A DNA stretch of 23,487 bases from Escherichia coli. Lineage in GTDB: Bacteria; Pseudomonadota; Gammaproteobacteria; Enterobacterales; Enterobacteriaceae. Shown piece by piece: positions 5,240 to 9,814 of the stretch. Within the stretch, counting starts at the first letter, position 1; each line of letters starts with the position of its first letter. Location: NCBI RefSeq assembly GCF_003334315.1, contig NZ_QOWR01000067.1; one strand, given 5' to 3'. The position numbers were made by a program, and so were the translations under genes. The notes under the pieces were generated by a model, which ran no database searches, had not been told where the DNA came from, and saw only the letters and a program-made list of their open reading frames with translations.

Positions 5240-8200
5240 ATGAACAGGACCAGTCCCCATTATTTTCGCCGCTCAGTACTTTCCTTATTGATATCTGCCT
5301 TGATATATGCCCCGCCCGTGATGGCGGCCTTTACTACTAATGTTATTGGTGTGGTAAACGATGAGACTGTAGATGGTGTCCAAAAAGTAGATGAACGAGG
5401 TACAACAAATAACACTCATATTATCAACCATGGCCAGCAGGAGGTCTATGGTGGGATATCTAATAGTAGTATTATTGAAACTGGTGGCGAGCAACTAGTA
5501 TCAATCGATGCCGATATTAACGGGCAAGCTAATAATACAACCATTAATGGAGGCAGACAGTCAATTGAGTACGGAGGAATTTCTACTGGCACGATAATCG
5601 AAAGTGGCAATCAATATGTTCATAAAGGTGGTACCAGCAATGACACGACAATTAAGGGCGGTACTTCACGCATAGAGGGGGGGACTGCGAATGGAACAAT
5701 CATTGATGGTGGCAGCCAACGAGTAACAACTCAGGGGCATGTCGACAGTACAACGATAAATAAGTCTGGCTCTCAGGACATCACGCAAGGAAGTCTGGCA
5801 ACGAACACAACCATAAATGGTGGTCGACAGTATGTTGAACAGAGCACAGTAGAAACAACCACCATTAAAAATGGCGGTGAGCAAAGAGTATATGAGAGCC
5901 GTGCGCTGGACACGACGATTGAAGGCGGAACTCAGTCTCTGAATAGTAAGTCAACGGCAAAAAATACGCATATCTATTCTGGTGGCACGCAAATTGTTGA
6001 TAACACCAGCACCTCGGATGTTATTGAAGTTTATTCTGGTGGCGTGCTTGATGTTAGTGGTGGTACGGCAACAAATGTTACCCAGCACGATGGTGCAATT
6101 TTAAAAACTAACACTAACGGTACGACGGTGAGCGGTACGAATAGTGAAGGTGCATTCTCCATCCACAATAAAGTGGCAGACAATGTGTTGCTGAAAAATG
6201 GAGGCCATTTAGAAGTATCTCATTCCGCAAACAAGACGATTATTAAAGATAAAGGAACAATGTCAGTTTTAACCAATGCTAAAGCTGATGCGACCCGAAT
6301 AGATAATGGCGGGGTTATGGATGTTGCAGGAAACGCGACAAATACCATAATTAATGGTGGCACACAGAATATTAATAATTATGGCATAGCCACAGGCACC
6401 AATATCAACAGCGTAACGCAAAATATCAAAAGCGGCGGGAAAGCTGACACAACAATTATATCCTCCGGGAGCCGGCAGGTTGTTGAGAAAGATGGTACGG
6501 CAATTGGCAGCAATATTAGCGCCGGAGGCTCGCTGATTGTCTATACCGGCGGTATTGCACATGGGGTTAACCAGGAGACGGGCAGTGCTTTAGTTGCCAA
6601 CACGGGCGCAGGGACTGATATCGAAGGATACAACAAGCTCTCTCACTTCACTATTACCGGAGGGGAGGCTAATTATGTTGTGCTGGAAAATACCGGCGAA
6701 CTGACGGTAGTGGCTAAAACCTCGGCGAAAAATACCACCGTTGATGCTGGCGGTAAACTGATCGTCCAGAAGGAGGCCAAAACAGATACCACCAGACTTA
6801 ACAATGGCGGCATTCTGGAGGTTCAGGACGGTGGAGAGGCTAAGCATGTAGAGCAACAATCCGGCGGCGCATTAATTGCTTCCACGACTTCCGGAACACT
6901 TATCGAAGGAACCAACAGTTATGGTGATGCTTTCTACATCAGGAATTCAGAAGCTAAAAATGTAGTGCTGGAAAACGCTGGCTCATTAACAGTCGTCACT
7001 GGTTCCCGGGCAGTTGATACGATTATTAATGCCAACGGCAAAATGGATGTTTATGGAAAAGATGTTGGCACTGTACTTAATAGTTCTGGCACCCAAACAA
7101 TATATGCCAGTGCCACTTCTGATAAAGCAAATATCAAAGGTGGCAAGCAAACGGTATATGGTTTAGCCACTGAGGCAAATATCGAAAGTGGTGAACAAAT
7201 TGTTGATGGTGGGTCAACAGATAAAACACACATCAATGGTGGCACGCAAACCGTTCAGAATTATGGTAAGGCGATCAATACCGATATCGTCTCTGGCCTA
7301 CAACAAATTATGGCAAACGGGACAGCGGAAGATTCCATTATTAATGGGGGTTCACAGGTAGTTAATGAGGGCGGTCTGGCTGAAAACTCGGTGCTTAATG
7401 ACGGCGGCACACTCGATGTGCGGGAGAAAGGCAGCGCAACGGGGATACAGCAGAGTAGCCAGGGCGCTTTGGTTGCAACCACCAGGGCGACGCGGGTCAC
7501 AGGAACACGCGCGGATGGCGTCGCGTTCAGCATCGAGCAGGGTGCGGCGAACAATATCCTGCTGGCAAATGGCGGCGTGTTAACCGTGGAGTCAGACACC
7601 TCTTCTGACAAAACACAGGTCAATATGGGCGGACGGGAGATCGTCAAAACAAAAGCCACTGCGACAGGCACGACGCTCACCGGCGGTGAACAAATTGTCG
7701 AGGGTGTGGCGAATGAGACAACAATTAACGACGGCGGAATACAAACAGTTTCAGCTAACGGAGAGGCAATAAAAACAAAGATCAATGAAGGCGGTACGCT
7801 GACAGTCAACGATAATGGCAAAGCGACAGATATCGTCCAGAACAGCGGTGCCGCTCTCCAGACGAGCACGGCTAACGGTATTGAAATCAGCGGTACTCAC
7901 CAGTACGGTACTTTTTCCATTTCCGGCAATTTAGCGACCAATATGTTGCTGGAAAATGGCGGTAATTTATTGGTATTAGCAGGTACCGAAGCTCGCGACT
8001 CCACGGTTGGCAAGGGTGGGGCAATGCAAAACCTGGGTCAGGACTCCGCCACAAAGGTTAACTCTGGCGGGCAATATACCCTTGGGCGGTCAAAAGATGA
8101 GTTTCAGGCTCTGGCCCGGGCAGAAGATCTCCAGGTCGCTGGCGGTACGGCAATCGTCTACGCAGGTACGCTGGCGGATGCATCGGTCAGTGGCGCGACA

Positions 8201-9814: not shown

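Follow-up and report, generated by a model that had tools for sequence, protein, structure and literature searches.

The locus described here raises two questions: which gene occupies it, and whether the product is a surface adhesin or a remnant comparable to its neighbours. A sequence-only reading of the window (the whole stretch of Escherichia coli DNA analyzed, 23,487 nucleotides) had proposed a very large adhesin-type autotransporter, carried as the main cargo of an islet.

Identity of the reading frame

The frame runs on the + strand from the ATG at 5240 to the stop codon at 9812-9814 with zero internal stops or frameshifts, and passenger and translocator are encoded as a single polypeptide of 1524 residues. 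A mechanical ORF call reaches further 5', to the GTG at 5111; the ATG at 5240 is the same as the RefSeq start codon. The gene is 100% identical at the nucleotide level to the RefSeq genes for WP_024238665.1, "adhesin-like autotransporter YpjA/EhaD", an entry without a pseudogene flag. Internal frameshifts, which would have spoken against an autotransporter, were thus not found.

With its full beta-domain, intact frame and RefSeq match, the gene is, with high confidence, ypjA (named ehaD in O157:H7), and its product belongs to the classical type Va autotransporters, as an adhesin of the AIDA-I/Ag43-like class. The structural reading made from the raw sequence is correct, yet the gene was already known: ypjA/ehaD is a named, experimentally studied gene and part of E. 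coli adhesin typing schemes. The importance of the result beyond correct annotation is small, and the side observations reported below leave the identity of the gene unchanged.

K-12 YpjA (b2647) is the orthologue, with 96% amino acid identity over its full length and the same domain order. The protein described here has 1524 residues against 1526 in K-12, owing to a 2-codon deletion near residue 329. Similarity to K-12 is uneven along the gene: identity is 86-87% in the first 600 nt and 99.7-100% in the last ~2400 nt. The O157:H7 gene (EhaD) shows 95.6% nucleotide identity. Since 13-14% of the nucleotides differ from K-12 over the first 600 nt, the binding properties of the present allele need not match those of the alleles tested so far.

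Table 1. Features of the ypjA locus, with their positions in the window and the supporting evidence.
Feature	Position	Strand	Residues	Evidence and remarks
ileY, tRNA-Ile(CAU)	2129-2204	+		ARAGORN and Rfam, RefSeq/K-12 annotation; left landmark of the variable interval
ypjCB pseudogene, internal stop	2955-4328	+		RefSeq annotation of identical locus; GC 0.33-0.35
pinH remnant, partial recombinase/invertase	4665-4832	+		RefSeq and K-12 annotation
Shine-Dalgarno-like GAGG	5227-5230	+		read from sequence; 9 nt 5' of ATG 5240
ypjA/ehaD CDS	5240-9814	+	1524 aa + stop	uninterrupted, single ORF
Sec signal peptide	5240-5326	+	1-29	hydropathy and -3/-1 rule; predicted cleavage after VMA
Passenger repeat zone	5411-8170	+	58-977	~37 units of 18-19 aa, consensus NTTIINGGTQTVEGGG
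AIDA-type module A	6065-6337	+	276-366	PF16168 aa 298-358, E 9.7e-21
AIDA-type modules B and C, tandem	6557-7114	+	440-532 / 533-625	PF16168 aa 462-524 (E 8.9e-24), 556-617 (E 4.1e-22)
AIDA-type module D	7433-7711	+	732-824	PF16168 aa 754-816, E 8.2e-21
AIDA-type module E	7820-8095	+	861-952	PF16168 aa 884-944, E 1.2e-21
Pertactin-like autochaperone	8402-8770	+	1055-1177	PF03212 E 8.5e-46; passenger C-terminal end
Pro-x linker	8783-8899	+	1182-1220	39 aa, 49% Pro, reads PNPDPIPNPKPDPKPDPKPDPNPKPDPTPDPTPTPDPEK
Pore-spanning alpha-helical linker and beta-barrel translocator	8963-9811	+	1242-1524	ends in beta-signal GVNWSF
ssrA, tmRNA	9975-10337	-		ARAGORN and Rfam, 295.8 bits; convergent with ypjA

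Domain architecture

The N-terminus reads MNRTSPHYFRRSVLSLLISALIYAPPVMA up to the predicted cleavage site and AF after it, with a basic n-region, a hydrophobic core (residues 12-24) and V-M-A at positions -3 to -1. For the K-12 orthologue, a signal peptide of 29 residues is also listed in a study that judged signal-peptide reliability with SignalP 6.0; Ag43 is listed there with 52 residues, so that the YpjA signal peptide is short in comparison (PMC13101318). The Pfam scan of YpjA revealed no extended signal peptide (ESPR) domain.

The passenger is built of degenerate repeats. BLOSUM autocorrelation over residues 31-1050 gave peaks at lag 18 (z 8.6) and lag 19 (z 7.8) and harmonic peaks at 36 and 54; at lag 20, z was -0.7. 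The period is therefore 18-19 residues, and not 19-20 as had been read by eye, while the dozens of repeats and the pattern T-x-I-N-GG-x-Q-x-V were well recognized: an iterated HMM detected 37 units, and their consensus (Table 1) fits this pattern. The first 12 units adjoin without gaps (residues 58-276). BLASTP of YpjA against itself gave zero off-diagonal HSPs, even at E <= 1, because repeats as degenerate as these escape BLAST; autocorrelation and the iterated HMM were therefore used to demonstrate them. On the DNA, Tandem Repeats Finder did not detect the passenger repeats, returning only two repeats, that of the Pro-linker and one of 12 nt in the signal-peptide region.

Five AIDA-type modules of ~92 residues, sharing 33-43% pairwise identity in the module alignment, break up the 18-19-residue repeats. 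The Pfam AIDA family PF16168 gave 9 significant matches in all, and the strand-loop-strand repeat TIGR04415 was found in 8 stretches (221.8 bits, cut-off 30). The autochaperone that follows aligns to residues 414-534 of pertactin (1DAB), and the sole two cysteines of the protein, 1045 and 1051, lie N-terminal to it. The DNA of the Pro-x linker is a degenerate 6/12/42-nt tandem repeat (Tandem Repeats Finder, 8800-8880).

The translocator is complete. PF03797 matches residues 1263-1502 (E 1.5e-46) and covers positions 1-254 of the 255 in the model, the TIGR01414 score is 328 bits (cut-off 16), and the region aligns end to end with the BrkA structure sequence 3QQ2 (residues 2-284 of 284, E 4e-24). 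The C-terminal residue is aromatic, in the terminus ...AGVNWSF. Altogether, the signal peptide (29 residues, Sec type, VMA followed by A), the Pro-x linker and the C-terminal barrel ending in F were all correctly read from the sequence, and the domain search proposed as a check, with PF03797, PF03212 and nine PF16168 matches, found the beta-domain whose absence would have spoken against the autotransporter reading.

Relationship to other autotransporters

Judged by sequence comparison, the passenger is most closely related to Ag43, AIDA-I and TibA. Its solved relatives are the AidA-I family adhesin 7KO9 (E 1.8e-30), Ag43 4KH3 (5e-29) and TibA 4Q1Q (2e-24); those of the barrel are BrkA 3QQ2 and Vag8 7AKV. 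Ag43, AIDA-I and TibA share with YpjA the 18-19-residue strand-loop-strand repeats, the AIDA modules, the pertactin-like autochaperone, the linker and the PF03797 barrel. However, YpjA scores only 343.8 bits with the Ag43 model NF033177 and 257.8 bits with the AIDA-I model NF033176, against cut-offs of 1200. YpjA is thus a relative, and no orthologue of either Ag43 or AIDA-I.

The Bordetella proteins BrkA, Vag8 and pertactin are alike in other parts: the YpjA translocator aligns with those of BrkA and Vag8 and its autochaperone with that of pertactin, whereas outside the autochaperone the passenger sequences show no relationship, and the proteins have different biological roles. Bordetella autotransporters act in serum resistance and host-cell adhesion.

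YpjA, YfaL and YcgV had been taken as a paralog group, a claim that did not survive the comparison. With YcgV, the alignment is confined to the autochaperone, linker and barrel (26% identity, 414 residues, E 5e-19), and for YfaL BLASTP gave no significant match (E 0.09). In a published phylogeny, YpjA and YcgV fall with Ag43, AIDA-I and TibA, and YfaL belongs to another group (PMC9289746). YcgV and YfaL have the same secretion type as YpjA and are grouped with it, in a review, as adhesins promoting adhesion and biofilm formation (PMC3796261). The three are grouped by function and not by sequence.

The locus and its distribution among genomes

The order of the locus is that of K-12, ygaQ'-ileY-ypjC/B'-pinH'-ypjA-ssrA, but without the CP4-57 prophage between ypjA and ssrA. 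The chromosomal position of ypjA is conserved, beside ssrA or beside an element inserted at ssrA. In a junction survey the 3' end of ssrA, where K-12 carries CP4-57, was unoccupied here. The intact O157 YpjCB contains NF050179 and DUF5507/DUF5508 and no other domain. Searches of the small ORFs beside ypjA with PADLOC, PDB and NCBIfam returned nothing. A 39-aa ORF at 5056-5175 was considered as a leader peptide and rejected: 5 of its 6 differences from the copy at the ycgI locus fall at codon positions 1-2, and thus give no sign of coding constraint. The ycgI fragment is a reduced second copy of the ypjA locus, in which the ypjA upstream region is still kept.

The interval between ileY and ssrA differs between strains, and at least 80% of ypjA is present in 2441 of 5426 complete genomes, which bears out the description of the gene as islet cargo. 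An identical frame was found in many unrelated isolates, from humans, dog, bird, pangolin and river water, and annotated intact orthologues, 94-98% identical, occur in many lineages. Decayed alleles also exist, either truncated by IS1 or deleted and frameshifted. Alleles with 71% coverage were considered as in-frame repeat losses, and this was rejected: the GB089 allele has lost 1320 nt, from the passenger end into the barrel, carries an additional 1-nt frameshift and is a pseudogene in RefSeq. Altogether, ypjA is an accessory gene, dispensable and often decayed.

Base composition and antisense reading frames

The GC content of ypjA (0.491) is indeed close to that of the downstream core genes (0.505), as had been noted, and higher than in the region 2205-5239 (0.372) or in ypjC/B (0.33-0.35). 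The further suggestion that this points to a different origin fared less well. GC2 is 0.471, against 0.33-0.45 in core genes, because the protein is rich in Gly, Thr and Ala, and GC3, 0.479 overall, increases in the 5'-to-3' direction from 0.39 to 0.55-0.64. Near-core total GC is thus weak evidence for a separate origin of ypjA.

The long antisense reading frames do exist, the open stretches measuring 211, 167 and 149 codons, and at least one of them (for instance 7261-7869, 202 aa) might in principle be a real overlapping gene. We consider this extremely improbable. In codon shuffles of ypjA the longest antisense stretch measured 174 +/- 44 codons and 17% of the shuffles reached 211, so that the observed stretches are not exceptional; the counts of stretches of at least 60 and at least 100 codons were at or below the shuffle means. 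Moreover, ffh, in the same window, has an antisense open stretch of 234 codons, and the RefSeq annotation is blank on the antisense strand of ypjA. Such stretches, ascribed earlier to repetitive Gly/Thr-rich coding, are no longer than in the shuffles and are expected of any gene with this codon usage.

Proposed export and function

The following route of export and the beta-helical fold are our inference, and so would be any expression of this allele in its host. The signal peptide would carry the 1524-residue precursor through Sec. BAM would insert the C-terminal ~280 residues into the outer membrane as a beta-barrel, with the alpha-helical linker in the pore, and the passenger (residues ~30-1180) would thread outward C-terminus first. 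The autochaperone would fold first and template vectorial stacking of the 18-19-residue repeats into a long right-handed beta-helix, held off the barrel by the Pro-x spacer. At the cell surface, this helix would mediate attachment to surfaces and biofilm formation.

Surface display of the passenger is a prediction for the present allele, while the adhesion and biofilm phenotypes upon forced expression come from the literature. Reviews that cite Roux et al. 2005 (J Bacteriol 187:1001) give YfaL, YpjA and YcgV a role in initial adhesion and biofilm formation (PMC3796261). EhaD/YpjA is linked to biofilm formation in reviews that cite Wells et al. 2008 (Environ Microbiol 10:589) (PMC9289746, PMC4076661, PMC12547504). 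YpjA is not mentioned in the main text of PMC2805444. A simple scan of the + strand from 4300 to 5400 detected no sigma-70-like promoter; this crude consensus match is weak on silenced or non-sigma-70 promoters. Two terminator-like hairpins lie 3' of the ypjA stop codon, no more than shuffles yield. K-12 ypjA is reportedly not detectably expressed under laboratory conditions. Taken with the promoter scan, this implies that the protein may rarely be made.

The gene might therefore be a silent relic, intact but unexpressed, contributing nothing and on course to decay into a pseudogene, as its neighbours have. The annotated neighbours in the interval are all pseudogenes or remnants (ygaQ', ypjCB with its internal stop, the pinH fragment), more than half of the complete genomes are without most of ypjA, truncated or deleted and frameshifted alleles occur, the second copy of the locus is already down to the ycgI fragment, and the upstream scan for a promoter was blank. 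We nevertheless hold this view to be possible rather than probable. A 4.6-kb frame free of stops and frameshifts is identical across many unrelated isolates, with intact orthologues in many lineages; phenotypes are seen upon expression, according to the reviews; and the scan has little to say on silenced promoters.

YpjA may also act mainly by self-association, its passengers pairing between cells and causing clumping, like Ag43, AIDA-I and TibA, instead of binding host or abiotic surfaces. The best passenger matches, to Ag43, AIDA-I-family and TibA structures and models, the AIDA and TIGR04415 repeats and the published phylogeny, which groups YpjA with these proteins and suggests a possible new self-associating member (PMC9289746), all point in this direction. 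Yet the scores (344 and 258 bits) fall far short of the equivalog thresholds of 1200 for Ag43 and AIDA-I and argue against it. The review passages give adhesion and biofilm formation, with no autoaggregation reported in them (PMC9289746, PMC3796261). There is also no heptosyltransferase gene adjoining ypjA, the neighbours being the pinH remnant, the 39-aa ORF, the ypjCB pseudogene and, on the 3' side, ssrA. In the aah-aidA and tibC-tibA arrangements, heptosyltransferase genes adjoin the adhesin genes. We regard self-association as the main activity as doubtful. It is highly unlikely that the passenger, instead of being an adhesin, acts as a secreted enzyme or a toxin (SPATE-like protease, lipase or cytotoxin). 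All that suggests this is an architecture common to autotransporters in general and, towards the C-terminus, weak similarity to the IgA1 protease 3H09 in the autochaperone region only. In the Pfam and NCBIfam scans neither a protease or lipase nor any further catalytic domain came up, and the AIDA repeats and pertactin domain account for the whole passenger. A surface adhesin remains our preferred reading of ypjA.

Within this surface adhesin, the membrane-distal tip (the first ~200 residues) could be an exchangeable recognition cassette, a speculation that we rate as rather improbable. It is in the tip region that nucleotide identity to K-12 falls to 86-87%, against 99.7-100% over the last ~2400 nt, and the lowest GC3 of the gene is also found there. 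If YpjA were self-associating in the manner of Ag43, the tip alleles of E. coli strains could determine which cells adhere to one another, in an allele-specific, kin-selective way. Studies of adhesin repertoire turnover in E. coli may profit from three observations made here: the mosaic tip at the N-terminus, the ghost copy at ycgI, and the fact that ypjA is frequently decayed or missing.

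Reading frame and identity of ypjA

The ypjA frame is uninterrupted on the + strand, open from a GTG at 5111 through the ATG at 5240 to the stop codon at 9812-9814. From this ATG, which has a GAGG 9 nt 5' of it (5227-5230), 1524 amino acids are encoded with zero internal stops. Window 5240-9814 was used as megablast query against 5426 complete E. coli genomes. Full-length, 100%-identical genes were found in many unrelated isolates, all labelled 'ypjA: adhesin-like autotransporter YpjA/EhaD' by RefSeq. In strain 1223, the annotated CDS (WP_024238665.1, no pseudogene flag) has exactly the coordinates proposed by the sequence-only reading. 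K-12 YpjA (b2647, 1526 aa) is 96% identical to the window protein, with one 2-residue gap, and the O157:H7 gene, EhaD in the literature, shows 95.6% DNA identity. Judged by these alignments, the gene is the YpjA/EhaD orthologue; ypjA is an already known gene.

The antisense strand of ypjA contains open stretches of 211, 167 and 149 codons, with ORFs of 202 and 143 aa among those listed. These had been noted as long by-products of the coding sequence, and they exist as such but are not exceptional. The longest antisense stretch in codon shuffles of ypjA was 174 +/- 44 codons, 17% of shuffles reached at least 211, and the numbers of stretches of at least 60 and at least 100 codons were at or below the shuffle means. 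In the same window, ffh has a 234-codon antisense stretch. The ypjA antisense ORFs are unremarkable by-products.

Features of the YpjA protein (aa) and of its surroundings (window positions, strand).
Feature	Position	Details
Signal peptide	aa 1-29	MNRTSPHYFRRSVLSLLISALIYAPPVMA/AF; basic n-region, hydrophobic core, V-M-A at -3 to -1
AIDA modules (five)	aa 276-366, 440-532, 533-625, 732-824, 861-952	~92 aa each; break up repeat units
Autochaperone	aa 1055-1177	Pertactin domain PF03212, E 8.5e-46
Pro-x linker	aa 1182-1220	39 aa, 49% Pro
Autotransporter beta-domain	aa 1263-1502	PF03797, E 1.5e-46
ygaQ pseudogene	left flank, before ileY	
ileY tRNA	2129-2204 (+)	anticodon CAT, hence tRNA-Met by ARAGORN; tRNA-Ile(CAU) by RefSeq and K-12 annotation
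ypjCB pseudogene	2955-4328	internal stop
pinH recombinase remnant	4665-4832	
39-aa ORF	5056-5175 (+)	RefSeq 'hypothetical protein'; just 5' of ypjA
ssrA tmRNA	9975-10337 (-)	converges on ypjA; then smpB and core genes

Domain organization

The sequence-only reading of a large adhesin-type autotransporter was borne out with minor corrections, the frame being intact and all type Va parts being found. The predicted signal peptide fits the N-terminus by its n-region, hydrophobic core and V-M-A; a 29-aa signal peptide is also given for K-12 YpjA in a passage of PMC13101318. A Pfam scan detected no extended signal-peptide domain in window YpjA. BLOSUM autocorrelation of the passenger, the exported part, was maximal at lags 18 (z 8.6) and 19 (z 7.8); harmonics appeared at 36 and 54, and z was -0.7 at lag 20. 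Therefore the passenger repeats are present as described, but their period is 18-19 aa instead of 19-20. An iterated HMM counted 37 units (consensus NTTIINGGTQTVEGGG), the first 12 being unbroken (aa 58-276). The five AIDA modules share 33-43% mutual identity and correspond to the five strongest matches to Pfam AIDA (PF16168; E 1e-20 to 1e-23). The NCBIfam strand-loop-strand repeat TIGR04415 matches the passenger in 8 stretches (221.8 bits).

The Pro-x linker was located as anticipated, and so was the C-terminal barrel, or translocator: it matches PF03797 and TIGR01414 (328 bits vs a cut-off of 16) and ends in F (GVNWSF). An end-to-end alignment pairs residues 1242-1524 with the solved BrkA translocator sequence (3QQ2 residues 2-284 of 284). 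Domain scans of window YpjA found no catalytic domain. The sole two cysteines of the protein, Cys 1045 and Cys 1051 (C-AGTSN-C, window 8282-8302), lie just N-terminal of the autochaperone and may form a small disulfide loop.

Related autotransporters and proposed export

By sequence, the relatives of the passenger among solved structures are the AidA-I family adhesin 7KO9, Ag43 (4KH3, 7KOB, 7KOH) and TibA (4Q1Q). YpjA is related to, and works like, Ag43, AIDA-I and TibA. YpjA is no equivalog of Ag43 or AIDA-I (344 and 258 bits vs cut-offs of 1200), and no heptosyltransferase gene is adjacent to window ypjA. The suggested YpjA, YfaL and YcgV paralog group fails at the sequence level: YcgV matched only the C-terminal 414 aa of YpjA (26% identity) and YfaL gave no significant match.

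What was observed for window ypjA is its identity, an unbroken frame and the full complement of type Va parts; its export mechanism was drawn from established knowledge of classical autotransporters. The precursor would be exported by Sec and the barrel inserted by BAM. With its C-terminus leading, the passenger would then exit through the barrel or beside it, the autochaperone nucleating folding, the repeats stacking into a beta-helix and the Pro-x spacer keeping this helix off the barrel. As to function, a passage of PMC3796261 (citing Roux et al. 2005) assigns YfaL, YpjA and YcgV a role in initial adhesion and biofilm formation, and statements in PMC9289746, PMC4076661 and PMC12547504 (citing Wells et al. 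2008) link EhaD/YpjA to biofilm formation. An excerpt of PMC9289746 describes the mechanism and structure of YpjA as unknown, and the protein as a possible further self-associating autotransporter. A simple scan of 4300-5400 found no promoter-like site upstream of ypjA on the + strand. The bamE product is a component of BAM, the machinery inserting autotransporter barrels. This core gene (window 11984-12325, -) lies ~2 kb from ypjA, probably by coincidence.

Composition and allelic mosaic

As had been noticed, the GC content of ypjA (0.491) is near that of the downstream core (0.505), and its neighbours are AT-rich (0.372 for upstream 2205-5239; 0.33-0.35 for the very AT-rich ypjCB). A separate origin, proposed from GC alone, does not follow, given the protein composition and a GC3 gradient. 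YpjA is rich in Gly (13.4%), Thr (11.4%) and Ala (7.9%), and because of this GC2 is 0.471 vs 0.33-0.45 in core genes; amino-acid composition thus flatters the total GC. GC3, 0.479 for the whole gene, increases from 0.39 over the first 900 nt to 0.55-0.64 towards the 3' end. Identity to K-12 ypjA is 86-87% in the first 600 nt and 99.7-100% in the last ~2400 nt, so that the diverging part is the low-GC3 5' part (window 5240-5840 vs 7400-9814). Therefore ypjA is itself a mosaic, and GC alone is no proof of separate origin. These data suggest that the passenger's distal end has been exchanged by recombination.

A variable islet between ileY and ssrA

K-12 has the gene order of the window, except that a 22-kb prophage, CP4-57, separates ssrA from ypjA there. 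A junction-spanning probe detected the direct ypjA-ssrA junction in 1385/5426 genomes. In the other genomes among the matches listed, homology ends at the ssrA 3' end, where another element occupies the site, or ~10 nt past the ypjA stop. At least 80% of ypjA is carried by 2441/5426 genomes. Decayed alleles also occur, such as one truncated by IS1 and one that combines a frameshift with the loss of 1320 nt. Thus the interval is a variable islet and ypjA an accessory gene, in agreement with its description as islet cargo. The B2 type strain ATCC 11775 is without ypjA, with phage-tail and invertase remnants in its place.

The ssrA 3' end is free in the window and occupied by CP4-57 in K-12 and by another integrase-bearing element in O157:H7. 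In ATCC 11775 (L009:1-12150), homology ends ~10 nt past the ypjA stop (window 9815-9975), and phage baseplate/tail-fibre genes, a partial recombinase, DUF262 and GIY-YIG genes replace ypjA. Since a pinH remnant also lies upstream of ypjA, the interval seems to have repeatedly hosted phage-derived DNA. Intact O157 YpjCB (L008:3716-5065; 449 aa, DUF5507+DUF5508) had no PDB or PADLOC match; a stretch of its C-terminal half resembles pentapeptide repeats (NLRGLDFKGCFFSGQNFSNYDIQYVNW). Further along, RefSeq starts yfjD (HlyC/CorC family transporter) on a CTG codon (window 17154-17156, -); the first canonical in-frame start is a TTG at 17132, giving a protein 8 aa shorter.

A ghost locus at minE

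The final 345 nt of ypjA have a second match in 5327/5426 complete genomes, including genomes without ypjA. In strain SJ7 this second match adjoins minE (L005:7647-8355). There, a 356-nt homologue of the sequence upstream of ypjA (window 4855-5210, 88.5% identity) runs straight into a 355-nt homologue of the ypjA end (window 9470-9824, 96%), which includes the barrel's final 115 codons. The minE-side copy is annotated in K-12 as pseudogene ycgI (b4521, L010:4565-4908). It is the ghost of a second ypjA-like locus, minus ~4.26 kb. The 39-aa ORF differs from its ycgI-locus copy by 6 nt, of which 5 fall at codon positions 1-2 and thus give no sign of coding constraint; this region is probably a conserved leader or promoter that does not code for protein.
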